Positions 1,519-17,406 of a stretch of DNA of 20,400 nt are shown here, piece after piece. Below the pieces are notes generated by a model. The model was not told the origin of the DNA. It did no database searches and saw only the letters and a list, made by a program, of their open reading frames with translations. Numbering within the stretch: position 1 is the stretch's first letter; every line of letters starts with the position of its first letter. The translations under genes and the position numbers were made by a program. The stretch comes from Chloroflexota bacterium (GTDB taxonomy: Bacteria; Chloroflexota; Dehalococcoidia; UBA2979), in assembly GCA_027593235.1 (NCBI GenBank), contig JAQCIU010000046.1, positions 1 to 20,400 of the forward strand, written 5' to 3'.

Positions 1519-1704
1519 CGGCGTACTCCCTCAGAGCACGCTGAAGTTATGGAATCGCCCTCGTTTGCGCGAACGCGGACCAACGGGTCTGTGTCACAGA
1601 GCCTCACACGATCGTCAAGCTCGTGGACCCTCGCAGGCACTAGTGTCGCGTACGCAATGGACCGGCGGACTCCGCATGGCGCCCGCCCGATCGGACGGGG
1701 GGTC

Positions 1705-2397
1705 ATGGTGAACGACGGTGTTGGTCCCATGGAGGTGCCGAACGACCTCCTGGCCGCTGAGATCCGATCGTTACGCGAGCGACTGTTCGCCGCTACCCAG
1801 GCGCACGACTGGATCCTCATTCGGTCGCGAGCGAAGGACCTGTCAGCGCTGGCAGCGGAGGTCGTTCAAGATGGCGCGCCTGAGGGGGAAGCCGTCTCCA
1901 CCGAGACTCGGCAGGCGGCCCAGCAAGCCCTCGAAGAGGCGAAGCGGCTGGCAGCCGCTGCCGAAAGTCGTCTCGCGGCACTCGGTGCGGACAGCGAAGG
2001 CGTTCTCGAGGAAGTCCGCGAACAGTTTCGAGTGTGGAGGCGGGGCACCCGGAACTACGGAGGCCTGAGCATTCTCGTGCGGCTCTCACTCCTATCGTCC
2101 ACCGCGATCGTCGCGGGCACGACGAACATCGAGGGCGACCCCGGCAACAACATCCTTCAGTCGCTCGTCGACTGGACGCCGCTCTTCGCGATCGCGGCGG
2201 CTGGCTTGACGGCACTCGATACGTGGCTGAAACCGCGAGACAAGTGGCGCGGTTTCATGGAGATGCGGGATCGCGCGAGGGCAATGATGACCCGCCTCAC
2301 GACACTCAGGGATGGGAAGGTCGAGGCCGACGTGCTCGGCTATCTCGACCAGTTGGCAGAGATGCGGACGGAGCACCGCGACCGAAATGTCATCTAG
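1705..2397 (+). CDS. DUF4231/SLATT-like two-TM membrane protein with an N-terminal helical/coiled-coil extension
   Basis: 3' part of ORF 613..2397. ATG 1705 follows a G-rich SD-like run; alternative starts are 1657 and 1729. Two hydrophobic segments (LSILVRLSLLSSTAIVAG; WTPLFAIAAAGLTALDTWL) are followed by KPRDKWRGFMEMRDRARAM, resembling the DUF4231 post-TM helix. Confidence 0.65.
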   Translation: MVNDGVGPMEVPNDLLAAEIRSLRERLFAATQAHDWILIRSRAKDLSALAAEVVQDGAPEGEAVSTETRQAAQQALEEAKRLAAAAESRLAALGADSEGVLEEVREQFRVWRRGTRNYGGLSILVRLSLLSSTAIVAGTTNIEGDPGNNILQSLVDWTPLFAIAAAGLTALDTWLKPRDKWRGFMEMRDRARAMMTRLTTLRDGKVEADVLGYLDQLAEMRTEHRDRNVI

Positions 2398-2445: not shown

Positions 2446-3555
2446 CTAATCCTCGTTCCAGAGTGCGCGGCGCTTCTGGTAGGTGTCCCATGCGAGATCG
2501 ATGTCGGCGAGGAACTTCGGCAGTTCTTCGAGGCGGAGCGCCTGCGGGCCGTCGACCAGCGCCTCTTCCGGGTTGGGATGGAAGTCGACCAGCACCATGT
2601 TTGCGCCGGCGACGACGCCCTGGGCGGTGACGTGCGCGATGTCGAGGATGCCGTCCGGGGCGACGCTGCGAGCGCCAACCGAGTGCGACGGGTCGATGCA
2701 CACGGGCATGCGCGTGAGGCGCTTGACGACCGGGACGTGGCCGAAGTCGACCATGTTGCGGTGCGGCGTGCCGAAGTCGCTGCGCATCCCGCGCAGGCAG
2801 AAGATCACGTTCGAGTTGCCCTCGCTCGCGAGGTACTCGGCGGCGTTGAGCGAGTCGTTGAGCGTGATGCCGAAGCCGCGCTTCACGAGCGCCGGGTAGA
2901 CGTGCTGGCGACCGATCGCCTTCAGCAGCTCGAAGTTCTGGCTGTTGCGCGTGCCGACCTGGAGGATCACGCCGGTCGGGCGCCCCGCCTTCTCAAGGGC
3001 GTTGTCGATCTCCTCGATGTGGGCCTCGCGGGTGATCTCCATCGAGATCGCCTTGATGCCGTACTGGCCCGCCAGCTCGAAGACGTAGGGGAGGCAGTCG
3101 GCGCCGTGGCCCTGGAACGAGTAGGGATTGGTGCGCGGCTTGTAGGCGCCCATGCGGGTCAGCGTGTGACCGGCGGCCTGCAGCGCCTTCATCATCAGCT
3201 CGACGTTCTTCGGGGTGTCCACCGCGCAGAGGCCGGGAAGCACCCGCAGCGTGTCCTGGCTGAACTCCACGCCGTTGTAGGTGAAGCCGGTCTGTCGCTC
3301 CTTGTCGGCGTGGCGACCGAGGACGCGGTACTCCTCGGAGATGCGGATCGCGCGCTCGACGGCTGGCAATGCGGCCACCTCGTCGAGGTCGACCGCGAGC
3401 GTGTCGCCCAGCAGGTAGATCTCGGTCAGCTTCTGGTGCTCACCCTGGATCGTGTTGACGCTGAGCTGCACACCCGGGAGTTGGTTGAGGTACTCCCAGG
3501 TCCGCTGGTACTCGGGGCTGCTCTCGTCGGTGTTGGGGTGCAGGATCGCGAGCAT
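2446..3555 (-). CDS. aroF: 3-deoxy-7-phosphoheptulonate (DAHP) synthase, class I-beta, with N-terminal regulatory domain
   Basis: Motifs GLCAVD, GAYKPRTNPYSFQG, QVGTRNSQNFELLK, LVKRG, DPSHSVG and DFHPNPEEALVDGPQAL. The roughly 75-aa N-terminal extension resembles the ACT/ferredoxin-like domain of this class. Confidence 0.88.
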   Translation of the reverse strand: MLAILHPNTDESSPEYQRTWEYLNQLPGVQLSVNTIQGEHQKLTEIYLLGDTLAVDLDEVAALPAVERAIRISEEYRVLGRHADKERQTGFTYNGVEFSQDTLRVLPGLCAVDTPKNVELMMKALQAAGHTLTRMGAYKPRTNPYSFQGHGADCLPYVFELAGQYGIKAISMEITREAHIEEIDNALEKAGRPTGVILQVGTRNSQNFELLKAIGRQHVYPALVKRGFGITLNDSLNAAEYLASEGNSNVIFCLRGMRSDFGTPHRNMVDFGHVPVVKRLTRMPVCIDPSHSVGARSVAPDGILDIAHVTAQGVVAGANMVLVDFHPNPEEALVDGPQALRLEELPKFLADIDLAWDTYQKRRALWNED

Positions 3556-3671: not shown

Positions 3672-5291
3672 CTACGGCCGGTTCAGATCCTCGACGGCGC
3701 CGTCGATGTAGAGGATCTCGAAGGCACTGGCAACGACCGGTGCGATCCGCGCAAGCTCGATCTCGTAGTCGAGTGCGAGACGCTCCGCGATCGCGAGCAC
3801 AGAGCGGTTCCCATCGGCGAGCGCGAGCGCCGCGGCGATGATCGGACTGACGGGCGTGCCTGCCGGGCGACCAGGCGAGCGAACGACGTGCGAGCGCACG
3901 AACACCCCGGTCTCGAGCACCGGCTCGATGAGCAGCTCCACGCCCGCGGCGACGTGCGGGACCGCACCGGCGACCGTCGGGCGGCTCCGTTCCGCCGAGG
4001 CCTCGCGGGCCTCGCGTTCCGCCTCGGTACTGCGAATCGCCGCGACGAACGCCTCGGGGGCCTCGCCACGATCGAGGACGACGCGCTCGTACCCGGCGGC
4101 CGGCTGTCCGGCGACGGCGTTTACAAACGCCTCGCGAGCGGTCAGGCCCGCCGAGGACGGGTCGAGGCGACGCGCCTCCCAGAAATAGGAGTCGGCGGTG
4201 CGGTTGCTGGAGTAGAAGAGTTTCGCCAACTCCCGGAAGTGGTCGTACTGCTGCCGGTAGAGCCGCTCGTAGATCGGGCGCGACTCGACCGCGAGCTGCT
4301 CGTCCGCGAGCAGTGTCGTGACGTAGGCCGAGGCCAGCACGCCGGCGTTCATCGCGAGGTGTACGCCCGAGGAGAACAGCGGGTCGATGAAGCAGGCGGC
4401 ATCCCCGGCGAGCAGGTACCCGTCGCCAATCAGCGAGGTCGCGACATACGACCAGTCCCGGATCGCGCGCGGCGGACCCTCGAGCCGCGCGTTCGCGAGC
4501 AGCGCCGCCGTTCGAGGAGCGCTTGCGAGGTGTTCGTCGAGGAACGCTCCGAGGTCGCCAGCCTCGATACGGTCGCGCGCCCGCTCCGCGTCGACGACCA
4601 CGCCGACGCTGGCGCGACCGTCGTGGAGCGGGATCGTCCAGCACCACCCGTTCGGGTGCGCCTCCACGAGGATGTTGTTCTCGTCCGGTGACGGGAGCCG
4701 CTCCGCTCCTCGGAAATAGCCGTAGACCGCGAGATTGCGGAAAAAGTCGTCCCACTGCCGCAGACCGAGCGCGTTGGCGACCAGCGCCTGCTGCCCGCTC
4801 GCGTCGACGACGACCTTCGCCGTGGCCTCGGAGCGGGTGCCGTTGGCACCCTGGAATGCGACGCCGGTGACGCGGTCACCGTCGCGCAGCAACTCCAGCA
4901 CGCGGTGCTCCTCGCGCACGTCCGCGCCGAGGGTGGCGGCGTGGCGGAGCAGAATTTCGTCGAACTGGGCGCGCACCACCTGGTAGGCGTGCGGGTAGGT
5001 GCGGTTGGTCTCCTGGAAGTACCAGCTCCACGGCTCGGGCGAGCTGCCCCAGACCATGGTGGCGCCGTATTTCTTGAGGAAACCGGCATTCTCGACCGCC
5101 TGGCGGATGCCCAGCTCCTCGAGGATCGGCAGCGACGCCGGGAGGAGCGACTCGCCGACGTGCTCGCGCGGAAAGCGCTCGCGCTCGAGGACGAGCACGC
5201 GCGCTCCGCGCTTCGCGAGCAGCCCGGCGGTGGTCGAACCCGCCGGACCGCCGCCGATCACGATCGCATCGAACGCTGCGACGGATGTCAT
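3672..5291 (-). CDS. FAD-dependent halogenase (phenol/pyrrole/acyl-type rather than free-Trp type) with C-terminal PqqD/winged-helix-like domain
   Basis: GGGPAGS FAD motif, FPREHVGESLLP, GFLKKYG (catalytic Lys position), WCWTIP (WxWxIP) and GDAACFIDPLFSSG (Fx.Px.Sx.G signature). Confidence 0.85.
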   Translation of the reverse strand: MTSVAAFDAIVIGGGPAGSTTAGLLAKRGARVLVLERERFPREHVGESLLPASLPILEELGIRQAVENAGFLKKYGATMVWGSSPEPWSWYFQETNRTYPHAYQVVRAQFDEILLRHAATLGADVREEHRVLELLRDGDRVTGVAFQGANGTRSEATAKVVVDASGQQALVANALGLRQWDDFFRNLAVYGYFRGAERLPSPDENNILVEAHPNGWCWTIPLHDGRASVGVVVDAERARDRIEAGDLGAFLDEHLASAPRTAALLANARLEGPPRAIRDWSYVATSLIGDGYLLAGDAACFIDPLFSSGVHLAMNAGVLASAYVTTLLADEQLAVESRPIYERLYRQQYDHFRELAKLFYSSNRTADSYFWEARRLDPSSAGLTAREAFVNAVAGQPAAGYERVVLDRGEAPEAFVAAIRSTEAEREAREASAERSRPTVAGAVPHVAAGVELLIEPVLETGVFVRSHVVRSPGRPAGTPVSPIIAAALALADGNRSVLAIAERLALDYEIELARIAPVVASAFEILYIDGAVEDLNRP

Positions 5292-7617: not shown

Positions 7618-8796
7618 CTAGATCGTCCCGGCGTCTCGCAGGGCGCCGATCTTATCCCGGTCGTAGCCGAGTTGGGACAGGACCTCGTCGGTGTGCTGTC
7701 CCAACTCGGGGGCCGGCCCCTGGATGCCGCCGGGCGTCTCGCTCAGCTCGAACGGGATGCCGACCACGCGGTGATTGGGGTAATTGGGGTGCTCCAGGTT
7801 CTGGAGGTAGCCGTTGACCCAGAACTGTTCCTCGGCGGCCATTTGGGCGTAGGTGTAGACGGGGCCACACGGCACGTCCTGCGCAATCAGGCCGTCGAGC
7901 CACTTCTGCCGCGGGCCGCGCAGGAACGAGGCCGCCAGCTCGCTCCGCAGCCACTCGGCGTTGTCGCGCCGCGCGAAGGGATCGCCGGAGCGTTCGTCGA
8001 TGATCAGGTCCTCGCGCTCGACCGCAATGCACATCAGCGGCCAGTGCTTCGGCGTCAGCACGCCGATCGTGAGCCACTCCCCGTCGGAGCATTCGTACGC
8101 CGTGAAGGTCGGGTTGATGTACTTCACCGTCGGCTCGTCGTTTGAGTGCAGGAAGCGCTGAACGCTCAACGCCTGCAGTGTCGCCATCGCCCCCATCTGC
8201 GAGACATCGACGCGCTGCCCCATCCCGTAACGCTCGCGGGCCAGCAACGCGGTCATGATTGCGTAGGCGAAGACCATGCTCCCCACCTGATCGGCGAGGC
8301 CCCAGGCGATCTGAACCGGTTCGTTCCCCGGTCCACCAGCCTGGCCGATCATCGCGCCGGAGATCCCCTGCGAGACGATGTCGAACGAGCCGCGATCGGT
8401 CCACGGCCCACGCGGCCCAAAGCCGCTGTTCACCGCGTAGATCAGCTTCGGGTTCAACTCGCGCATCTCGTCGTAGCCGAAGCCGAGCGAATCGAGGACG
8501 CCGGGGCGGAAGTTCTCCGTGAGTACGTCGGCGTCCGCGACCAGCGCCCGGATGATCTTCGCGCCCTCGGGGGCCGCGAGGTCGACAGTGATCGACTTCT
8601 TCCCGCGATCGAGTGCTTCGAAATAGGCGCAAAATCCGTCGGGGCCCTTGCCGAGCAGGCGCCCTGGATCGCCCTCGCCCGGACGTTCGACCTTGATCAC
8701 CTGCGCGCCCATGTCGGACAGCATCAGCGTGGCGTGTGGCCCGTTCTGGAAGCGCGTGAAATCGATGACTTTGATGCCGTCGAGTGGTGCGGGCAT
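7618..8796 (-). CDS. Family III CoA-transferase (CaiB/BaiF/Frc family)
   Basis: Likely start is ATG 8796 (MPAPLDGIKVIDFTRFQNGP...GAQVIKVERPGEGD). Also RGKKSITVDL, ENFRPG, catalytic Asp region GLADQ and APELGQHTDEVL. The ORF track's extension to 10008 is antisense to the ThDP gene. Confidence 0.93.
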   Translation of the reverse strand: MPAPLDGIKVIDFTRFQNGPHATLMLSDMGAQVIKVERPGEGDPGRLLGKGPDGFCAYFEALDRGKKSITVDLAAPEGAKIIRALVADADVLTENFRPGVLDSLGFGYDEMRELNPKLIYAVNSGFGPRGPWTDRGSFDIVSQGISGAMIGQAGGPGNEPVQIAWGLADQVGSMVFAYAIMTALLARERYGMGQRVDVSQMGAMATLQALSVQRFLHSNDEPTVKYINPTFTAYECSDGEWLTIGVLTPKHWPLMCIAVEREDLIIDERSGDPFARRDNAEWLRSELAASFLRGPRQKWLDGLIAQDVPCGPVYTYAQMAAEEQFWVNGYLQNLEHPNYPNHRVVGIPFELSETPGGIQGPAPELGQHTDEVLSQLGYDRDKIGALRDAGTI

Positions 8797-8839
8797 GGCG
8801 TGAAACCTCGGGATCTCGTGGCGACCGGTCGACGGCGTC

Positions 8840-8899
8840 AGCCTACACCGGCGCGCCGGAGCAGATAGCATGCGTCGCTGAAACCAAACGACGTTCGAG
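8840..8899. promoter_or_regulatory. Divergent promoter region with shared-motif copy (ACCAAACGACGTTCGAG, 8883-8899)
   Basis: Candidate -10 hexamers TAGGCT (minus, 8845-8840) and TAGCAT (plus, 8866-8871). CAAAC-N3-GTTCG lies between the plus -10 and the GAGGAAGG SD. Confidence 0.45.
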
Positions 8900-8913
8900 G
8901 AAGGCAACACACG

Positions 8914-10554
8914 ATGGCGGAGATCAAGGGCGCAACGCTGGTCGCGCGGCAACTCAAGGCGAGCGGCATCGATCACGTCTTCACCGTGCTCGGCGGCCCG
9001 ATGATCGACGTCCTCGCCGAGTGCAACAACGAGGGCATTCGCGTCATCAACTGCCGCCACGAGATGAACGCTGCGTTCGCCGCGTCGGCGTGGGGCTACC
9101 TGAACCAGAAGCCTGGGGTGATGATCGCCGCCTCCGGGCCTGCAATGACCAACACTGTCACGCCGATGTACGTCGCCACGCAGAGCGCGATGCCGTTGAT
9201 CGTCCTCGGTGGCTCGGCTGCCGAGGGCGGGCTCGGGTTCGGCTCGTTCCAGGAGGCGGATCAGGTCGCCTTCGCGAAGCCGGCCACGAAGTGGGCGCAA
9301 CGCGTCGACCAGGCCGAGCGCATCCCGGAGTTCCTCTACCTCGCCATGTCCCGCGCGCAGTACGGCCGGCCGGGCGCCGTCTACCTCGACTTCCCGGGCA
9401 ACCTCGTCTCCGGTCCCGGACGTGTCGAGGAGGCCAACGCGCCGCTGCGCGAGAGCGCGCCGGAGATCGCCTTCGCCGCTCCCGACTCCGCGTCGATTGA
9501 GCGCATCGCCGAGATGCTCGCCACCGCCGAGCGGCCGTTGATCATGGTCGGCAAGGGCGCCGCGTGGGGTGACGCCGGGCTCGCACTGACGAGGTTGGCC
9601 GACCTCGGGATCCCGTTCGTCGCGTCGCCGATGGGGCGCGGCACGATCGCAGACGACCACGACGCGAACGCCGGCGCCGCGCGGTCCGCCGCGATGCAGG
9701 GCGCCGACGCCGTGCTGATGGTCGGCGGGCGCTTCAACTGGATGTTCCAGATGGGCAGCCGGCTGCCCTCGAACGTCCGCATCGCGCAGATCGACGTCGA
9801 GCCCGAGGAGTTCCACTCCGCCGCCAACGTCGAGATCGGCCTCGTCGCCGACTGCCGCGTCGGCGTGGAGGCGATCAACGCAGCCCTCGAGGGCCGCACG
9901 CTCCGCACGACCTCGAGCGGCTGGCTCGCCGATCTCCAGGCGAAGTCCCGCGACAACGAGGGCAGCGTCGCCGAGCAGATGAGCTCGGACCAGCAGCCGA
10001 TCAACCACTACCGCCTCATCGCGGACGTCCGCGACTCAATTGAGCGCGATGCGATCGTGACCGAGGACGGCGAGTTCACGATGGCGGTGATGCGCCAGGT
10101 GATGCCGACGCACGTCGGGCGTCACCGCTTCGGCGCCGGTACGACCGGATGCATGGGCACCGGCCTCCCCTACGCCGTCGGCGCGAAGCTCGCGCGTCCG
10201 GATCGGCAGGTGGTGGCGGTCCTCGGTGACTACGCCTTCGGCGCCGCGGCGATGGAGGTGGAGACCTGCGCGCGGCTGGACATCCCGATCGTGATCGTCG
10301 TGTCGAACAACGGTGGCATCGCGGCGCACACGATCCAGGACCGCAGCTTCCCGGCGGACGCACCGCCGATTGCGACGCTGATCCCGGCGGACTACGAAAA
10401 GATGGTCGAGATGGTCGGGGGCCACGCCGAGCGGGTCACGAACCCCTCGGAGATCCGCCCGGCGATGGAGCGTGCATTCGCGTCCGGCAAGGTGTCGTTG
10501 CTGAACGTGATCACGGACCCGAAGGCGAGCCGCCGAGGCAGCGGCTACCTGTAG
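8914..10554 (+). CDS. ThDP-dependent enzyme, 2-hydroxyacyl-CoA lyase / oxalyl-CoA decarboxylase family
   Basis: RHE catalytic Glu motif, SGPAMTN, GSFQEADQ, IMVGKGAAW, SPMGRG and the ThDP motif GDYAFG...MEVET...NNGGI. Confidence 0.88.
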   Translation: MAEIKGATLVARQLKASGIDHVFTVLGGPMIDVLAECNNEGIRVINCRHEMNAAFAASAWGYLNQKPGVMIAASGPAMTNTVTPMYVATQSAMPLIVLGGSAAEGGLGFGSFQEADQVAFAKPATKWAQRVDQAERIPEFLYLAMSRAQYGRPGAVYLDFPGNLVSGPGRVEEANAPLRESAPEIAFAAPDSASIERIAEMLATAERPLIMVGKGAAWGDAGLALTRLADLGIPFVASPMGRGTIADDHDANAGAARSAAMQGADAVLMVGGRFNWMFQMGSRLPSNVRIAQIDVEPEEFHSAANVEIGLVADCRVGVEAINAALEGRTLRTTSSGWLADLQAKSRDNEGSVAEQMSSDQQPINHYRLIADVRDSIERDAIVTEDGEFTMAVMRQVMPTHVGRHRFGAGTTGCMGTGLPYAVGAKLARPDRQVVAVLGDYAFGAAAMEVETCARLDIPIVIVVSNNGGIAAHTIQDRSFPADAPPIATLIPADYEKMVEMVGGHAERVTNPSEIRPAMERAFASGKVSLLNVITDPKASRRGSGYL

Positions 10555-10567
10555 CGCTGGGCTCCGG

Positions 10568-11836
10568 TCAGGCGGTCGCGGCACCTCGGTACTGGTCGCG
10601 CAGCGCCGTGGGTGTCGTCGACCCGAGGATCGACGGGATGCCGACGACCGCGACGACGATCGCGGCGATGATCCAGCCCATGGTGTAGTCGCCCTGCACG
10701 TCGACCAGCCGGCCGATGACCCACGGACCGGCTGCGCCGCCGGTCGTGGAGATGAACTGCATCGTTCCGTTGATCGTGCCGAAATGCTTGGTCCCGAAGT
10801 AGTCGGCAGCCATCGAGGGCCGCAACGGGATCGTGCCGCCGAAGCCCGGCGCGGCGATCGCGATCGCGGCGATCGCGACCACGAGGCTGTTCGCTGCCGC
10901 GAGCAGCAGCAGCCCGCCCGAAAGCATCACCAGCGCCACCGCCATCACCAGGCGCTTCGGGTAGCGGTCCCCGAGGTACCCGAACCCGATCCGGCCCACG
11001 ATCGAGGAGAGCGTGAACACGGCGATCGTGCTGCTGGCGACGGTCTTGGAGACCCCGAGCTGCGTCTCGAGGTACGGGATCTGGTGCACGACCAGCGCGA
11101 CGAACCCGAAGCTGCTCCCCAGCATCGCCAGCGAGAGCAGCAGGAACGACCGCGATTTGATCGCCTGCCGCACCGGTACGCCCCACTGCTCGGCAGCCTC
11201 GACGTCCTCGCCGTCGTCGCGTCGACGCACGCCATCCATTGGCTGCGGGTGGCCCGGCGGGCGGGAGCGCACGTTGCTGCCGACGGTCAGCCCGACGACA
11301 AGCATCAGCAGCGCCAGCACGCGCAGCGCCCAGCGCCAGCCGGCGAGCTCCACGAGGAACCCGATCCCAACGACGAAGACACCGCCGATGCCACCGCCGA
11401 GCGTCATGATCGACATCGCGAAGGCGCGTCGGTCCTGGAACCAGGTGGAGATCGCGGTGAGCCCGACCTGGCCGCCGGCCGCACTCGACCCGAAGGCGAT
11501 CACGACCATCACCAGGTAGAAGTGCCACAGCTCCTGCATGAACGACATCCCGAGGACGCCGATCGCCGCCATCGTGACGCCCGAATACAGGACGCGCTTC
11601 GGGCCAATCCGGTCGAGCGCGATGCCGACGAAGATCGCCCCGACGCCACCGATCTCGTTTCGCAGCGAGAAGGCGAGCGCCGTGGAGGCGTTGCTCCAGC
11701 CGAACTCGTCGCGAACCTCGTTGAAGATGGTGCCAAAGCCGTAGAAGAACGTGGCCGCGACCACGAGCACGATCACGGCGGAGGAGCCGACCACCAGCCA
11801 GCCCTCGTACACATTCGGGTACATCCTGCGAAGCAT
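10568..11836 (-). CDS. MFS transporter (monocarboxylate / oxalate:formate antiporter-like)
   Basis: About 12 hydrophobic segments; motif A in both halves (GIALDRIGPKRV, GYLGDRYPKRLV); YEGWLVV N-terminus; ADYFGTKHFGTING. Confidence 0.9.
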   Translation of the reverse strand: MLRRMYPNVYEGWLVVGSSAVIVLVVAATFFYGFGTIFNEVRDEFGWSNASTALAFSLRNEIGGVGAIFVGIALDRIGPKRVLYSGVTMAAIGVLGMSFMQELWHFYLVMVVIAFGSSAAGGQVGLTAISTWFQDRRAFAMSIMTLGGGIGGVFVVGIGFLVELAGWRWALRVLALLMLVVGLTVGSNVRSRPPGHPQPMDGVRRRDDGEDVEAAEQWGVPVRQAIKSRSFLLLSLAMLGSSFGFVALVVHQIPYLETQLGVSKTVASSTIAVFTLSSIVGRIGFGYLGDRYPKRLVMAVALVMLSGGLLLLAAANSLVVAIAAIAIAAPGFGGTIPLRPSMAADYFGTKHFGTINGTMQFISTTGGAAGPWVIGRLVDVQGDYTMGWIIAAIVVAVVGIPSILGSTTPTALRDQYRGAATA

Positions 11837-11878
11837 GGGTCCCTTGCCCGCGGTACTGGCGCTTGTGCCGTCCGCGCG

Positions 11879-11923
11879 CCAAACATCGCACTCGGTCGAG
11901 TCTCGTTCTACCGCCGTTTGATT
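11879..11923 (-). promoter_or_regulatory. Two partial copies of the shared motif upstream of the MFS gene
   Basis: Minus-strand AATCAAACGGCGGTAG (11923-11908) and CGATGTTTGG (11888-11879) match 17341-17349 and 17348-17357 exactly over 9 and 10 nt. Confidence 0.4.
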
Positions 11924-11926
11924 ACG

Positions 11927-13294
11927 TTACGGATCCCCGAGGATTGCGCGGAGCTTCCGAGCGCCGACCAGGACCGGATCCCACACGCCGGAGAACGGCG
12001 GCGCGTACGACAGATCGACGTTGATCAGCGCGTCCACCGTCATCTCGTTCCAGAGCGCCATCGCCAGCGCATCGATCCGTTTCGCTGCGCCGTCCCCGCC
12101 GACGATCTGCGCGCCCAGCATCCGGCGCGTCCCGCGCTCCGCGACGACCTTCATCGTCATCGGCTGCGCGCCCGGCCAGTAGCCGGCGGCGGTCGTTGCC
12201 TCGAACGTGTCGGCGACCACATCGAGGCCCAACGCGCCGCACTCGGTCTCGGTTAGCCCCGTGCGCGCGACCTCCAGGTCGCACAGCTTGGTGATCGCCG
12301 TGCCGAGCACGCCGGGGAACGCCTCGTCGCCACCCCAGAGGTTCACCCCGGCGATCCGTCCCTGCTTATTGGCGATCGTTCCGAGGTGGAAGTTGACCGG
12401 CTTGGCGGAGAGGCGGTGGCGCGTCTCCACGCAGTCGCCGGCGGCCCAGACGCCAGGGACCCGGGTGCGCTGATGATCGTCGACGATGATCCCGCCCGTG
12501 TCGCCAACCGGGATGCCGTTCTGCGTGGCCAGCCAGACCTCGGCGTGGCTCCCGAGGCCGAGCAGCACCACGTCAGCGGGGAACGGGTCGCCAGCCGCGC
12601 GGCACACGCCGGTCACCCGGTCACCGCCCTCGATGCGTTCGATGCGCTGGTCGGTGACGACGGTGATGCCGATCGCCTCGGCCGCCTCACGGATTAACCG
12701 GCCCATCGCCGGGTCGAGCTGCGGGTCGAGCAGCGACTCCGACGCCGTGACGATCGTGACGGCGATCTCGTGCCGGTGAAATGCCTCGGCCATCTCGACG
12801 CCGATGTAGCCACCGCCCACCACCACCGCGTTCCGCGGCTGCCACTCCTCGATGATCTGGCGCAACGCCACCGCGTCGTCGAGCGTGTGCATCTCGAAGA
12901 CGCCCGGTAGGTCCGCGCCCTCGATCGAGGGCCGGTTTGGCTGGGCTCCGGTGGCGATCAGGAGCTGGTCGTACGGCTCGCTGCGATCCTCGCCACCGTC
13001 GACCGGTCGCACCACGACCCGCCGCGCGTCCGTATCGATCGAGGTCACCTCGTGGCGTCGGTGCACCTCGATATCGCGCGCGGCGAACTCCTCGGGGGTG
13101 CGCGCGATCAGCGAGTCGAGGTCGGTGACGTAGTCGCCGACGAAGTAGGGCTCGCCGCAGGCGGAGTAGGAGACATACGAGGACCGCTCAAAGACGACGA
13201 TCTCAAGGTCATCGGCGGATCGGCGCCGGCGGGCCTCGGAAGCGGCGGACATCCCGCCGGCGTCGCCGCCGATGATGACGAGTCGTTCGGGCAT
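11927..13294 (-). CDS. CoA-disulfide reductase / NADH oxidase-peroxidase family flavoprotein
   Basis: GGDAGGMSAAS, SYSACG (single redox Cys), ATGA, VVGGGYIGVE, WAAGDC and C-terminal DLSYAPPFS. Confidence 0.9.
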   Translation of the reverse strand: MPERLVIIGGDAGGMSAASEARRRRSADDLEIVVFERSSYVSYSACGEPYFVGDYVTDLDSLIARTPEEFAARDIEVHRRHEVTSIDTDARRVVVRPVDGGEDRSEPYDQLLIATGAQPNRPSIEGADLPGVFEMHTLDDAVALRQIIEEWQPRNAVVVGGGYIGVEMAEAFHRHEIAVTIVTASESLLDPQLDPAMGRLIREAAEAIGITVVTDQRIERIEGGDRVTGVCRAAGDPFPADVVLLGLGSHAEVWLATQNGIPVGDTGGIIVDDHQRTRVPGVWAAGDCVETRHRLSAKPVNFHLGTIANKQGRIAGVNLWGGDEAFPGVLGTAITKLCDLEVARTGLTETECGALGLDVVADTFEATTAAGYWPGAQPMTMKVVAERGTRRMLGAQIVGGDGAAKRIDALAMALWNEMTVDALINVDLSYAPPFSGVWDPVLVGARKLRAILGDP

Positions 13295-13331
13295 GGGAGG
13301 TCCGTCCGTTCGTTCGTGTCGGCTTGTGGTT

Positions 13332-13895
13332 CTAGCGCGACCGGAAGATCCAGTGTGCCGTCATCACGAAGACGCGGTCGATGACGGCGATCACACCGCC
13401 GACAACCGCGCCGACTGATGCAGCGATCAGCCCGATCGGCACGAGGACGATCGCGGAGATGACGAAGACCGCGTAGCGGCCGCCGATCAGGTTGTATTCG
13501 ATGTTCTCGGGCTCCGGGAACAGGAGCTGGATGACCGTGACGATGTTCCAGAACGCGACCAGGCCCAGCCAGAACACGACGCCCGCCGTCGCGCCCCAGC
13601 GAACATGGTGGGGCGCCGCCGCCCCCGTCACCAAGGGAGGCTGGCGCCCGCTCGGTCCCAGCACCCGTGGCGTCACCCAATGCATGGCGAGCAAGAGGTA
13701 GCAGAACACTCCGGCGAACACGCCCGAACGCACATCCAGCGCGAGCATCACGAGGGCACCGAGGAGCGTGGAGAGGGCGATGGCGATGGCGGCTGCGCCA
13801 ACGACAGAGAACGCCCACGTTCGTCGAGTTCCAGGGCCCGGATTCGGACGGGAGACCCTGCCGAGCCACCGGCGGATCGGATCTCGCGGCGCCAG
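13332..13895 (-). CDS. Uncharacterised ~4-TM membrane protein, paralog of 14393..14938; start uncertain
   Basis: The ORF track starts it at GTG 13751, but the frame is open up to 13913 and encodes a further TM helix (TWAFSVVGAAAIAIALSTLLGALV). In-frame CTG codons lie at 13895 (GAGG just upstream) and 13910. Confidence 0.6.
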   Translation of the reverse strand: MAPRDPIRRWLGRVSRPNPGPGTRRTWAFSVVGAAAIAIALSTLLGALVMLALDVRSGVFAGVFCYLLLAMHWVTPRVLGPSGRQPPLVTGAAAPHHVRWGATAGVVFWLGLVAFWNIVTVIQLLFPEPENIEYNLIGGRYAVFVISAIVLVPIGLIAASVGAVVGGVIAVIDRVFVMTAHWIFRSR

Positions 13896-13913
13896 CCAGC
13901 CTCGGAACAGGGG

Positions 13914-14378
13914 CTACCAGTACCCGGCCATCAGCTCGCGCGCCCAGTCGTGCTCACGTACCTCGCTCCGCGGCTCGAAACCAGCCATGTAGGGCTTGAT
14001 GTCCAGCACCGGCGTGCCGTCGATCGCATCGAGGCCGCGCACGCGGATCCGCAGGCCGTCGACCTCGAGAATTTCGCAGGTGGAGACGCCGATGCGGTTG
14101 GGCCGGGCCTTCGCCCGCTGCGCGAGGATGCCGACCATCGGCCAGTCCGGGTTGCCTCGCGGGCGACGCGCGCCGCGCTGGACGGCGTCCGCGGCGACCC
14201 GGTCGAAGTGAAACACGACCACCAGATGCGAGAACTGGTCGAGGCTGGCCGTCGCGTCGGGATCGAACTGGGTCGGGTCGACCTCGATGGTCGCTTCCTC
14301 GGCGCCCCAGTCGTCGTCCTCGATTGCCTCGCGGCCACCTCGGACGTGGGCGATCGGGGTGAGCGCGATCGTGGTCAT
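13914..14378 (-). CDS. TrmO/TsaA-like SAM-binding beta-barrel protein (single domain)
   Basis: ATG 14378 with GAGAGG SD; FSHLVVVFHFD, GILAQRAKARPNRIGVS and GLDAIDGTPVLDIKPY motifs. Confidence 0.88.
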   Translation of the reverse strand: MTTIALTPIAHVRGGREAIEDDDWGAEEATIEVDPTQFDPDATASLDQFSHLVVVFHFDRVAADAVQRGARRPRGNPDWPMVGILAQRAKARPNRIGVSTCEILEVDGLRIRVRGLDAIDGTPVLDIKPYMAGFEPRSEVREHDWARELMAGYW

Positions 14379-14392
14379 CGTGGAAGCCTCTC

Positions 14393-14938
14393 TCACAGGG
14401 AATCGGCCTCTGGCGACCGAACGCGGATTATCGCGGCGGAGACCGCCACCAACAGGGAATCGGTGAGGCCGACAAACATCCCGACGAACGCGCCAACGGC
14501 AAATGCGAACGGCGATGAGATCGCTGCCCCGATCGGCAGAAAGATCGCGAGTCCAAGCGCATCGGTGTCTTGCTTTGCGACACCGATCACGAGCACCGCG
14601 ATCATCCCGATGGGGGCGGCAACCGCCACTGTGGCGACGCCAGAGACGCCGCCCCACAGCATCGACTGCGGCAAAATGTCGTGCCGTCGCACGAGCGACG
14701 GCCAGCCGATCCGTCGCAGCGCCTCGGCAGTTGTCACCCACGTGATCAGCCACAGGTAAACGAACAACCAGAGGCCCGCCACGGTGTTCAGTCCGTCGAG
14801 TGCGTCACCAAGGCCGCCGCCGAAATAGACAAGCCCGAGGACAACGAGCACCAGCAGCGTCGTATGGAAGGTCGCCAGCGCCACCGTGACCGAGGCGCTC
14901 GGCAGCCGCGGATCGATCCGTCGCAGTCGATCACCCAT
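14393..14938 (-). CDS. Uncharacterised ~4-TM membrane protein
   Basis: ATG 14938 overlaps the upstream stop by 8 nt (ATGGGTGA); four long hydrophobic segments. Confidence 0.75.
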   Translation of the reverse strand: MGDRLRRIDPRLPSASVTVALATFHTTLLVLVVLGLVYFGGGLGDALDGLNTVAGLWLFVYLWLITWVTTAEALRRIGWPSLVRRHDILPQSMLWGGVSGVATVAVAAPIGMIAVLVIGVAKQDTDALGLAIFLPIGAAISSPFAFAVGAFVGMFVGLTDSLLVAVSAAIIRVRSPEADSL

Positions 14939-15377
14939 GCGCAAGCCACACTGCCGCACAGACGATCACGGCGGTGAGTGCCGAAGTCGCCGCATAGAGG
15001 TCCACAAACACGTGCACCTCACGCGTCACTCCGATGTCGCGGAGGCGAATGACCGACAGCGCGCGCACCGCCGACAACAGCATCAGCACCACCACCAGCG
15101 CCATCTTAAAGACGAAGGTTCGGCCCCAGTCCGTCTCCGGTCCCGGCAGTCCGAGGCCAAACACGCCGAGGTTGCCGACACCCGTCGCAACGATCGCCCC
15201 GAAGGCGAGCCAGAACGCGATCTCAAAGCGGGCGGCGGTGGCGATGAACGCGGTGCCGCGTTGCGGGGCAGGCACACTCCAGCCGGCGATGGCGATTCCG
15301 AGGGATCCGCCGACCAGGATCGTCGCTGCCAGTACGTGGATCATGCGGACGGCGACGTGGATCACGTGGCCGTCCAT
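14931..15377 (-). CDS. CopD-like 4-TM membrane protein
   Basis: RMIHVLAATILVGG, IVATGVGNL, WGRTFVFKMALV and C-terminal LAHG fit the H...GG / TG / K pattern of CopD-like membrane domains. Confidence 0.65.
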   Translation of the reverse strand: MDGHVIHVAVRMIHVLAATILVGGSLGIAIAGWSVPAPQRGTAFIATAARFEIAFWLAFGAIVATGVGNLGVFGLGLPGPETDWGRTFVFKMALVVVLMLLSAVRALSVIRLRDIGVTREVHVFVDLYAATSALTAVIVCAAVWLAHG

Positions 15378-15382
15378 CGGCG

Positions 15383-15529
15383 TTACCCGACCTCGGGGGG
15401 TGGAGGCGATGGCTGGCCGCGACTGCCAGCGCCCAGGACGTGAAGATTCGGGCCAGTGGGTTCGGGAAGCAGAGGTCCTGCGCCGACCGAAGCCGGGGGT
15501 TGCGCATTCATCGGGGCGGAGCTGGGCAT
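15383..15529 (-). CDS. Candidate 48-aa Pro/Gly-rich small protein
   Basis: AGGAGG SD 7 nt before ATG 15529; MPSSAPMNAQPPASVGAGPLLPEPTGPNLHVLGAGSRGQPSPPPPEVG; the TAA ends 5 nt before the next ATG. Confidence 0.45.
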   Translation of the reverse strand: MPSSAPMNAQPPASVGAGPLLPEPTGPNLHVLGAGSRGQPSPPPPEVG

Positions 15530-15589
15530 CGGTCGCCCTCCTGCCGCAAGCCGTCTCACTGCTCCCTGAGCGTACTGAGCCGTTCGGTT

Positions 15590-15612
15590 ACAAACACCAT
15601 CGAGGATGGCAC
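15590..15612 (-). terminator. Weak hairpin downstream of lipA
   Basis: GTGCCATC-CTC-GATGGTGT (5 Watson-Crick plus 3 G-U pairs) followed by TTGT, 13 nt after the lipA stop. Confidence 0.25.
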
Positions 15613-15625
15613 CCGATACGCCGCG

Positions 15626-16516
15626 TTATCGCCCGACCTGCGCCGCCCGCGCCTGCTCGCCGGCGTGGTAGGAGCTGCGGACCAGCGGGCCTGCCTCGAT
15701 GTGATCGAAGCCGAGGGCGAGGCCGTGTGCCTTCAGTTCGGCGTACTCGTCCGGGTGGACCCAGCGGTCCACCGGGAGGTGCTTCTCCGTTGGGCGGAGG
15801 TACTGCCCGATCGTGACGAGGTCGACGCCGGCGTCCCGCACGTCCTCGAGGCTCCGCTTCAGCTCATTGAGGCGTTCGCCGATGCCGACCATGAAGCCGG
15901 TCTTCACCGGGATGTCAGGGGCGAGGCGCTTCGATTCGCGGAAGAGCGCCAGCGTTCGCTGGTAGTCGCCCTTCGGGCGGACGCGCGGGTACATCCGAGG
16001 TACGGACTCCGTGTTGTGGTTGAGCACCACCGGGCGCGCTTCCAGCACCGTAGCGAGGGCATCCCAGTTGCCCTCGAAGTCGGGGATCAGCACCTCGACG
16101 TCGCACGAGGGCGTCCGGTAGCGCACGGCGCGGACGCAGGCAGCAAAGATGCTGGCGCCGCCGTCGGCGACGTCGTCGCGATTGACCGCGGTGATCACGG
16201 CGTAGTCGAGGCCCAGCGTTTCGACCGCCTGCGCGAGCCGGACCGGCTCGAGCGGGTCGATCGCTTCGGGGCGGCCGGAGTTGATGGCGCAGAAGCCGCA
16301 GGCGCGGGTGCAGGTGTCGCCGAGGATCATGAACGTCGCGGTGCCGGCGTTGTAGCACTCGCCGATGTTCGGGCAGCGCGCTTCCTGGCAGACGGTGTGG
16401 AGCTGGTTGACCGCCACCAACTCGCGGACCATCTCGAACCGCTCGCCGCCGGGGAACTTCGCCTTGAACCAGCTCGGCTTCCGCTCGAGCGGCGCGCGTT
16501 CTGTTTCGATCGTCAT
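15626..16516 (-). CDS. lipA: Lipoyl synthase
   Basis: CQEARCPNIGEC (CX4CX5C), CTRACGFC (radical SAM CX3CX2C), IGQYLRP and RSSY; ATGA overlap with the lipB stop. Confidence 0.98.
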   Translation of the reverse strand: MTIETERAPLERKPSWFKAKFPGGERFEMVRELVAVNQLHTVCQEARCPNIGECYNAGTATFMILGDTCTRACGFCAINSGRPEAIDPLEPVRLAQAVETLGLDYAVITAVNRDDVADGGASIFAACVRAVRYRTPSCDVEVLIPDFEGNWDALATVLEARPVVLNHNTESVPRMYPRVRPKGDYQRTLALFRESKRLAPDIPVKTGFMVGIGERLNELKRSLEDVRDAGVDLVTIGQYLRPTEKHLPVDRWVHPDEYAELKAHGLALGFDHIEAGPLVRSSYHAGEQARAAQVGR

Positions 16517-17259
16517 GCGAGCACCGCCTCGGCGACTGCGGTTCCGAGTGGGCTGCTATCGGCATCGACGAGGTGCGAGTCGAACCGCTGCTCGAAAACG
16601 ACGCGGTACGCGTCGACCACATCCTCGAAGCGAGGAGCGACCTCGAGCAGGCGCGCCATCGAGGTGACCTCGGCGTCGGCGATGCCGCAGGGGACGATCG
16701 CGTCGAACCAGGCGAGGTCGGTGTCGACGTTCAGCGCGAGGCCGTGGGTCGAGACGCCTCGGGAGACGCGCACGCCGACGGCGGCGACCTTGGCGCCGTC
16801 TATCCAGACGCCGGGGCGCCCTCGGACGCGCTCGCCGCGCAGGTCGAAGGCCTCGAGGACATCGATCGCGGTCTGCTCCAGCAGGCGCACGTAGTCGACG
16901 GGCCGGATGCCGCGCGCGTGAAGATCGAGGATTGGATAGACGACGAGCTGGCCGGGGCCGTGAAACGTCACGTCGCCACCTCGATCTGTCTCGATCACCG
17001 TTGCGTCACACGCGGCGAGCGCATCACGCGATACGAGGATGTTCGAGCCGTCCGCGCGGGCGCCGAGGGTGTAGACGGGTCGGTGCTGGATCAACGCCAG
17101 CACCTCGGAAACGGCGCCGTTACTGGCGGGGGCGCCTCGGGAATCGCGAATCGCCTCGGCGGTCGCGAGCTGCCAGTCGAGGGCGATTCGGTAGTCGACG
17201 GCGTCGGCACGGTGCAGTCGCACCGTGCGGGGTCCTGCTGACGCGGGGTTCACCGACAT
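16513..17259 (-). CDS. lipB: Lipoyl(octanoyl) transferase
   Basis: QHRPVYTLG, DRGGDVTFHGPGQLVVYPI, KVAAVG, HGLALNV and IVPCG motifs. Confidence 0.97.
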   Translation of the reverse strand: MSVNPASAGPRTVRLHRADAVDYRIALDWQLATAEAIRDSRGAPASNGAVSEVLALIQHRPVYTLGARADGSNILVSRDALAACDATVIETDRGGDVTFHGPGQLVVYPILDLHARGIRPVDYVRLLEQTAIDVLEAFDLRGERVRGRPGVWIDGAKVAAVGVRVSRGVSTHGLALNVDTDLAWFDAIVPCGIADAEVTSMARLLEVAPRFEDVVDAYRVVFEQRFDSHLVDADSSPLGTAVAEAVLA

Positions 17260-17268
17260 CGTGCCACG

Positions 17269-17274
17269 ATTCTA
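17269..17274 (-). promoter_or_regulatory. Candidate -10 element (TAGAAT) for a near-leaderless lipB transcript
   Basis: TAGAAT ends 9 nt before the lipB ATG, with no SD in between. Confidence 0.45.
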
Positions 17275-17341
17275 GCTCCACGCCGTTCACGCGGCCTGAG
17301 TAGTGTTACTACGAACGCGCAACCGCAGCCCTATCTTCAGA

Positions 17342-17358
17342 ATCAAACGATGTTTGGT
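17342..17358. promoter_or_regulatory. Putative operator, best shared-motif copy (ATCAAACGATGTTTGGT)
   Basis: Perfect CAAAC-N3-GTTTG core covering the expected -35 position of a candidate -10 TAGGCT (17374-17379) upstream of aceE. Confidence 0.55.
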
Positions 17359-17406
17359 AGACCTTCGATCGTCTAGGCTGGGATCGCAGGGACGGAGCAG
17401 GCAGAC

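Follow-up and report, generated by a model that had tools for sequence, protein, structure and literature searches.

As flavin-dependent halogenases are sought-after biocatalysts whose usefulness is decided by substrate selection, we wondered what role is played by the C-terminal domain of a halogenase-type enzyme encoded in a genome fragment of a Chloroflexota bacterium (GTDB lineage Bacteria; Chloroflexota; Dehalococcoidia; UBA2979). The window, that is, the whole stretch of DNA that was analysed, comprises 20,400 nucleotides (positions 1 to 20,400 of contig JAQCIU010000046.1, assembly GCA_027593235.1). The original prediction had proposed that the halogenase core is complete and is followed, after a helical linker, by a winged-helix domain resembling PqqD and the recognition elements (RREs) of peptides that are synthesized ribosomally and modified post-translationally (RiPPs). 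Two functional readings were offered: the enzyme either halogenates peptides or proteins, using an RRE of its own and with a precursor encoded elsewhere, or it resembles the halogenase CmlS. The sequence and model analyses described here point to a variant-B flavin-dependent halogenase, a type that is itself known, with a substrate-side domain homologous to PqqD, which would be new.

Catalytic core and linker

The 539-aa protein scored 155.1 bits against the Trp_halogenase model (PF04820), for which the cut-off is 21, and thus belongs to this family. Flavin-dependent halogenases are defined by a flavin-binding GxGxxG motif and a WxWxIP motif; the corresponding segments here are GGGPAG (residues 13–18) and GWCWTIPL (215–222), accompanied by K74 in FLKKYGAT, D279 in RDWSY and FIDPLFSSG (301–309). 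These motif residues, including K74, are invariant across 40 aligned family members (52–88% identity), and K74 aligns to the lysine of 'IKRGG' in CndH and of 'VKKPSA' in CmlS. The best solved relatives by sequence were CndH (3e1t, E 1.7e-97), FasV (8zop, E 9.3e-85) and CmlS (3i3l, E 8.7e-72), and further ones were Mpy16, ChlB4 and PltA. All of these alignments stop near query residue 397; for the last 140 residues, a solved relative is therefore not detectable by sequence.

An AlphaFold2 (AF2) model of the full-length protein (mean predicted local distance difference test score (pLDDT) 84.9, predicted template-modelling score (pTM) 0.85) matched the folds of CndH (Z 49.2, 41% identity), FasV (48.5), RadH (46.1), PltA (43.4) and CmlS (42.3). 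In NCBIfam, scores remained below threshold: QhpG (NF049967) reached 205.7 bits against a cut-off of 240, aligning over residues 10–480, the CmlS model 291.9 bits against 900 and LodB 144 bits, with GoxB also among the sub-threshold matches. By its sequence and its modelled fold, the protein is therefore a CndH/CmlS-type ('variant B') flavin-dependent halogenase-type enzyme, which would be expected to halogenate. The original prediction of a complete core (residues 1–397) followed by a helical linker is borne out, the modelled helix spanning residues 413–442 and running into the C-terminal domain.

Before this helix, the full-length model has pLDDT values below 50 at residues 367–377 and 379–404 despite strong sequence conservation in the 40-member alignment. 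The stretch 367–404 (window 3963–4190, minus strand; SNRTADSYFWEARR ... AVAGQP..GYER) is among the most conserved of the family, and may be a lid that becomes ordered only with a substrate or partner.

Fold and homology of the C-terminal domain

Nucleotides 3672–3962 encode residues 444–539 and the stop codon, as had been read originally. AF2 modelling of residues 438–539, using a 40-row alignment (39 homologues and the query), returned a winged-helix fold with a mean pLDDT of 95.3. Strands at residues 444–447, 452–460, 463–472 and 475–481 precede helices at 483–491, 498–509 and 513–530, matching the predicted order of strands and then three helices, and a last strand follows at 533–537. P445, P457, F464, G478, S482 and G494 are invariant in the 40 sequences.

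In a Foldseek comparison of this model with the PDB, the single match at E <= 1e-3 was PqqD (5sxy; E 7.7e-4, TM 0.68/0.73, 91 columns, 25% identity), followed in order by GdmN, Rv2067c, TbiB1, lasso B1, PqqD 3g2b, TbtB, QhpG, MibB, ThcOx, CteB, PbtF, CmlS and LynD. A VIA-align structure comparison covering 48,161 representative chains gave the C-terminal domain of Rv2067c as best match (Z 12.9). Next came lasso B1 (6jx3, Z 11.0), PqqD (5sxy, Z 10.7; 90 residues aligned, rmsd 2.1, 26% identity), TbiB1 (Z 10.2), PKMT2 (Z 9.4), NovN (Z 8.8), the PbtF RRE (Z 8.5), ThcOx (Z 8.0), MibB (Z 7.9), and QhpG and NisB (both Z 6.3); CteB, TbtB, MccB and LynD were also matched. When the Foldseek list was re-scored, GdmN reached Z 10.1 and CmlS residues 448–549 reached Z 4.5 (rmsd 3.6, 94 aligned, 7% identity).

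The PqqD model of Pfam (PF05402) matched neither residues 438–539 nor residues 390–539, even at E <= 10. The sole Pfam touch on the domain was the winged-helix family HTH_47 (0.0012, below the cut-off), and NCBIfam gave a non-significant touch of the RiPP-binding protein ApyI (E 0.099). We compared alignments by hhalign, using 25 sequences for the domain (that of the window and 24 short C-terminal fragments) and 22 PF05402 domains from Chloroflexota genomes (8 of 30 loci were left out because their frame was at least 383 aa). The two families matched with a probability of 89.4% (E 2e-6) over 75 in-register columns that include the aligned DG motif, whereas the best of 30 column-shuffled controls reached 1.0% (E 0.056) and the reversed alignment 0.2%. 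Given this match and the weak controls, the domain is, on profile comparison and modelled fold, a true but remote PqqD/RRE homologue overlooked by the Pfam model. The PqqD/RRE-like winged helix of the original prediction is thus upheld by the top Foldseek match, by Z-scores of 10.2–11.0 against PqqD and RREs, and by the hhalign result.

Among solved structures, the domain as a single-sequence query found nothing meaningful (best E 0.1, a coat protein), and its profile had PqqD 3g2b (E 0.14), 5sxy (0.54) and QhpG (0.92) among its top six matches, none of them significant. Look-alikes in the ESM Atlas (DUF7782, PqqD, a PKMT winged helix and MftB) all scored below 0.9 and serve as leads only. A phmmer search with the domain against 1.84 billion representatives gave 48 matches; 45 are collinear with the C-terminal part of the halogenase and appear to be fragments from this family, and three are very long proteins that gave no BLAST alignment. 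This search found no stand-alone or differently fused form of the domain, although short stand-alone forms would be indistinguishable from fragments. All 11 close relatives found by a word-indexed search with the domain only also carry halogenase Pfam domains. In the searches made, the domain was found only joined to this halogenase family.

Placement of the domain on the enzyme

Superposition of the whole model on CmlS aligned 451 residues, model 5–539 on chain 2–549, whereas the nine remaining halogenase structures among the ten best-ranked aligned over 353–400 residues. That the CmlS alignment reaches the C-terminus is expected if the domain occupies the position of the CmlS domain. The isolated domain aligned to the QhpG winged helix at chain 353–430 (Z 6.3, 21% identity). 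As judged by alignment ranges and aligned-residue counts, the domain appears to be placed in the model where CmlS and QhpG have their winged-helix domains. According to the QhpG report, the protein-substrate pocket lies between a catalytic domain and a C-terminal winged helix, and CmlS is named as the closest structure (PMC7876137). Given this shared two-part architecture, a winged helix after the core looks like an old feature of the flavoenzyme clade, of which the family of the window seems to keep the most PqqD-like version. The CmlS-like reading fits the architecture of the enzyme as a whole, which superposes over 451 residues; the isolated domain also aligns to its CmlS counterpart, but only weakly.

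Family size and distribution

In a word-indexed search with the halogenase, 7793 of 8000 scored candidates matched at E <= 1e-10. Among the matches listed, most of the best ones are 535–573 aa long with 95–100% coverage, and the names, where given, are Chloroflexi, Dehalococcoidia, SAR202, Tepidiformaceae, Tectimicrobiota and Planctomyces. A relative was encoded in 584 of 600 pattern matches from species-representative genomes. The best 80 relatives come almost all from metagenome-assembled genomes of Dehalococcoidia/Chloroflexota, with one each from Entotheonella, Acidimicrobiaceae and Pseudomonadales. In an even sample of the phylum, three of 81 genomes had a match at E <= 1e-80, and the two besides the genome of the window matched in the core only. 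Within the order of the window, such a match was present in 30 of 61 genomes, nearly always full-length and usually as a single copy, and in most genera presence was all-or-none. The halogenase family is thus large and almost confined to Dehalococcoidia/SAR202-type Chloroflexota. No description of the family or of a halogenase-RRE fusion was found in those parts of the literature that were accessible. The main text of a 2025 RRE survey names no halogenase or FAD (flavin adenine dinucleotide) fusion, although its supplementary Pfam lists might (PMC12710340).

Gene neighbourhood and co-occurrence

On the minus strand, the window has the order CoA (coenzyme A)-transferase, hydrolase, monooxygenase, halogenase and a gene similar to 3-deoxy-D-arabino-heptulosonate 7-phosphate (DAHP) synthase (Table 1). 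We compared this order with the loci of the best 80 relatives (81 loci with the window). A homologue of the luciferase-like monooxygenase is present in 55 of the 80 related loci (61–88% identity), mostly directly upstream and on the same strand, and across these loci it is more conserved than the halogenase itself. Hydrolase homologues occur in 38 of the 80, usually upstream of the monooxygenase, and CoA-transferase homologues in 20. For the other genes of the window, homologues were found in three loci (biotin carboxylase), two loci (DAHP synthase) and none (four more genes). When open reading frames (ORFs) of at least 70 aa within 6 kb were clustered across the 81 loci, only the monooxygenase, the hydrolase and shadow frames recurred widely. 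Less frequent neighbours were a thiamine pyrophosphate (TPP) enzyme, a cyclase, a glucose-methanol-choline (GMC) oxidoreductase, a short-chain dehydrogenase/reductase (SDR), an HpcH aldolase, a zinc-dependent alcohol dehydrogenase (Zn-ADH) and an H+-pyrophosphatase.

Table 1. Features of the window with position, strand and supporting evidence
Feature	Position	Strand	Evidence and remarks
Halogenase-type gene (P0001)	3672..5291	-	539 aa; ORF and translation, PF04820, CndH match
Catalytic core, residues 1–397	4101..5291	-	Motifs in sequence; CndH/FasV/CmlS alignments cover residues 5–397
Linker, residues 398–443	3963..4100	-	Conserved AVAGQP..GYERVVLDRG and long charged helix 413–442
PqqD/RRE-like winged-helix domain, residues 444–539	3675..3962	-	AF2, Foldseek, VIA-align, hhalign; stop codon 3672–3674
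Luciferase-like (flavin-dependent) monooxygenase, 444 aa	5313..6647	-	Bac_luciferase 8.4e-38; 21 bp upstream of halogenase
Alpha/beta-fold hydrolase, 263 aa	6663..7454	-	Abhydrolase_6 4e-24; 15 bp upstream of monooxygenase
Family III CoA-transferase	7618..8790, start approximate	-	CoA_transf_3 on residues 409–773 of 796-aa ORF
TPP-dependent enzyme, 546 aa	8914..10554	+	Overlaps N-terminal half of over-extended 796-aa ORF
Divergent second DAHP-synthase-like gene	2446..3555	-	DAHP_synth_1 9.1e-41; 116 bp downstream of halogenase
Major facilitator superfamily (MFS) transporter	10568–11836	-	
Pyridine-nucleotide disulphide oxidoreductase	11927–13294	-	
TrmO-domain protein	13914–14753	-	
Lipoyl synthase	15626–16516	-	
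LipB	16513–17259	-	
Pyruvate dehydrogenase E1	17407–20112	+	

Among the 61 genomes of the order, 28 carry both halogenase and monooxygenase and 31 carry neither; two (G132 and G137) have the halogenase without the monooxygenase, and none has the reverse. As these genomes are kin, the count is not a statistical test. The PDB relatives of the monooxygenase are distant luciferase-type enzymes only (best E 3.9e-18) and give no functional clue. Prediction of a complex between halogenase and monooxygenase scored 0.00 in two runs made without controls, which speaks neither for nor against binding. In many genomes of genus g62, two to four closely related copies of the monooxygenase (55–72% identity to that of the window) were observed, for example in G092, G101, G122, G135 and G138, and several genomes have no copy beside the halogenase.

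The DAHP-synthase-like gene scored under all NCBIfam cut-offs, a stronger copy being present on contig C35 of the genome, and as a neighbour it is shared with the two closest related loci only (L006 and L007). DAHP synthase and biotin carboxylase had been considered as clues to a pathway and were dropped as general clues because they lie near the gene in only two and three of the 80 loci. The 796-aa ORF at 7618–10008 (minus strand) is over-extended, the CoA-transferase occupying its C-terminal half only, and about 10 other loci likewise have TPP-enzyme genes close to the halogenase. A run of about 232 codons at 1699–2394 (plus strand), flanked by the biotin carboxylase and DAHP-synthase genes, has a protein-like composition and two hydrophobic stretches, with no Pfam match. 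The remainder of the window (10568–20112) is housekeeping-like.

Search for a RiPP context

The survey of homologue neighbourhoods for short ORFs that the original prediction had suggested gave no conserved candidate: 639 unassigned ORFs of 25–99 aa lie within 2.5 kb of the halogenase, and the largest cluster covers four of 81 loci. Members of this cluster, proteins of about 70 aa that start with MCRSIKTLRRP (for example L025:4749–4961 and L029:11613–11831, both plus strand), are encoded 31–38 bp downstream of the halogenase and are unlike a precursor peptide. Neither a RiPP-type enzyme nor carrier-protein, nonribosomal peptide synthetase (NRPS) or polyketide synthase (PKS) genes were seen among the annotated or conserved neighbours, respectively. 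As measured from a greedy gene call, the median gap flanking the halogenase is 46 bp on the upstream side (n=70) and 63.5 bp on the downstream side (n=68); in this call, 11 loci were dropped because the halogenase ORF was not kept, and GC-rich DNA may hide true gaps. A six-frame search of the genome with PF05402 found one gene only, which is not the halogenase and lies on another contig (own genome L001, contig C26, 39868–40068, minus strand; 41.2 bits, 101-aa frame). The nitrile hydratase leader peptide (NHLP) search gave no match in the genome, and is uninformative as it was silent in every control genome.

Function of the C-terminal domain

We give about even chances to a halogenase in which the domain homologous to PqqD forms a wall of the substrate pocket, and which, together with the monooxygenase and the hydrolase, acts on a substrate that is non-ribosomal. 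Such an enzyme would be two-component, with reduced FAD supplied by a flavin reductase encoded elsewhere; four Flavin_Reduct genes are present elsewhere in the genome of the window. A hypohalous or lysine-chloramine species would form at the conserved K74 behind the WxWxIP motif, and the substrate would be halogenated in a pocket bounded by the catalytic core on one side and the C-terminal domain on the other. The domain would then have been inherited as an integral wall or gate of this pocket, and not acquired recently as a reader of leader peptides, and the enzyme would be part of a conserved module of hydrolase, luciferase-like monooxygenase and halogenase. In Dehalococcoidia/SAR202-type bacteria, this module is set amid genes for CoA-transferase, TPP enzyme, dehydrogenase and aldolase. 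This setting suggests that the substrate is non-ribosomal, a small molecule that may be an acyl-CoA, a phenolic compound or an enolisable one. Of the two functional readings offered originally, the CmlS-like one fits the architecture, and the peptide halogenase found no support in the genomic context.

Several observations weigh against a domain that only walls the pocket. It is much nearer to working, leader-binding RREs (Z 10.2–11.0) than to the CmlS domain (Z 4.5). Its family-wide conservation extends to the elements that form the peptide cleft of RREs, namely the end of helix 3 and the strand preceding helix 1, which suggests a specific ligand. The solved enzymes with this domain include modifiers of proteins and peptides, namely QhpG, Rv2067c, PKMT1/2 and RiPP enzymes. 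In addition, the pose is derived solely from alignment ranges and aligned-residue counts and not from coordinates, the monooxygenase is multi-copy in many genomes and does not always adjoin the halogenase, and no activity or substrate was found in the literature for any family member. Because of the closeness to RREs, the conserved cleft and the peptide- or protein-acting fold relatives, readings with a peptide or protein substrate or a protein partner have to be weighed beside the pocket wall.

One of these, which we consider unlikely, is that the domain binds the leader of a precursor encoded elsewhere and presents its core to the active site. The RRE fold, with leader-bound RREs (6jx3, 5v1u and 8t19) among the best matches, and the remote homology to PF05402 are consistent with such a role; the relative QhpG acts on a peptide (PMC7876137), and the known peptide halogenases MibH, SrpI and ChlH (ChlH preprint) give precedent for the enzyme class. 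However, no RiPP enzyme family is annotated among the neighbours, no ORF of 25–99 aa is conserved within 2.5 kb, the operon is tightly packed, the sole PF05402 gene of the genome lies on a different contig, and the strand that would pair with a leader has near-invariant prolines (P476 and P480). The conserved partners are instead a monooxygenase and a hydrolase in catabolic-looking surroundings. As a precursor may be encoded elsewhere, the original idea of an enzyme that halogenates peptides or proteins by means of its own RRE is weakened by these results, not refuted. More doubtful still is a form of this idea that would make the enzyme the first of the flavin-dependent halogenases in which a working recognition element is built in; guided by it, the enzyme would act on ribosomal peptides or proteins encoded elsewhere, which the monooxygenase and hydrolase would tailor further.

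With the same low probability as leader binding, the domain could be a docking site for a folded protein (for example the monooxygenase, a flavin reductase or a carrier protein), for channelling or for post-translational modification, by analogy with LodB/GoxB/QhpG-type flavoproteins that act on partner proteins. Substrates of CndH-type enzymes are believed to be bound to carrier proteins. The strict co-occurrence and frequent adjacency of halogenase and monooxygenase agree with docking, as do the sub-threshold NCBIfam matches to QhpG (205.7 bits), LodB (144 bits) and GoxB; the best domain match, the C-terminal domain of Rv2067c, helps to form a protein-substrate trough according to the paper describing it. 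Yet every match to an NCBIfam protein maturase is below its cut-off, the monooxygenase is conserved from residue 1 without a leader-like extension, and carrier-protein, NRPS and PKS genes are missing among the conserved neighbours. We regard as the least probable reading a flavin monooxygenase (hydroxylase) that has retained halogenase-like motifs, as QhpG has retained WxW. QhpG and LodB, of the same superfamily, do hydroxylate (PMC7876137), and the surroundings look oxidative and catabolic, but all 40 aligned members have the lysine by which halogenases are told from hydroxylases, and the closest solved relatives by sequence and fold are all halogenases.

Implications

The halogenase-type gene described here belongs to a very large, uncharacterised family whose substrate-side domain, by sequence profile and model, is homologous to PqqD, a peptide-binding fold. 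A domain that reads peptides or proteins would offer a portable, leader-guided halogenation module, and post-translational halogenation would be widespread in abundant SAR202/Dehalococcoidia lineages of ocean and sponge. If it only walls the pocket, the RRE fold would be older and broader than RiPP biosynthesis; the family would then join the carbamoyltransferase, protein-methyltransferase and QhpG examples, and would be a warning to genome mining that uses RRE folds as RiPP markers. Host bacteria of the SAR202/Dehalococcoidia type have been associated with turnover of refractory organic matter in the sea, and the conserved hydrolase-monooxygenase-halogenase module is a concrete target for learning what these organisms halogenate.

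Comparison with known systems

CndH (3e1t) is the best match both by sequence (residues 5–397) and by fold, and has the same set of motifs including the lysine. The sequence alignment ends at residue 397 of the query; CndH is 512 aa long, and its tail was not matched when the domain was compared in isolation. Unlike the family of the window, CndH is part of a cluster of natural-product genes. PqqD and the RREs (PF05402; 5sxy, 3g2b, 6jx3, 5v1u and 8t19) share the fold of a beta-sheet and three helices (Z 8.5–11.0), whereas the domain of the window is fused to a halogenase and has an extra N-terminal and an extra C-terminal strand; near the genes of its family, no precursor peptide or RiPP enzymes were found. 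The peptidyl-tryptophan dihydroxylase QhpG (7ctq) is of the same flavoenzyme superfamily and has a winged helix at the same position. It differs in being a hydroxylase that acts on a cross-linked peptide and is encoded in the qhp operon (PMC7876137), whereas the locus of the window has no qhp-type neighbours and matches QhpG below the family cut-off. In CmlS (3i3l), the C-terminal domain is only weakly alike (Z 4.5, rmsd 3.6, 7% identity) and without a sequence match, but the arrangement of a halogenase core with a C-terminal domain of the winged-helix type is shared. Also conserved in the halogenase of the window is the aspartate of 'DWSY', which in CmlS is said to bind flavin covalently.

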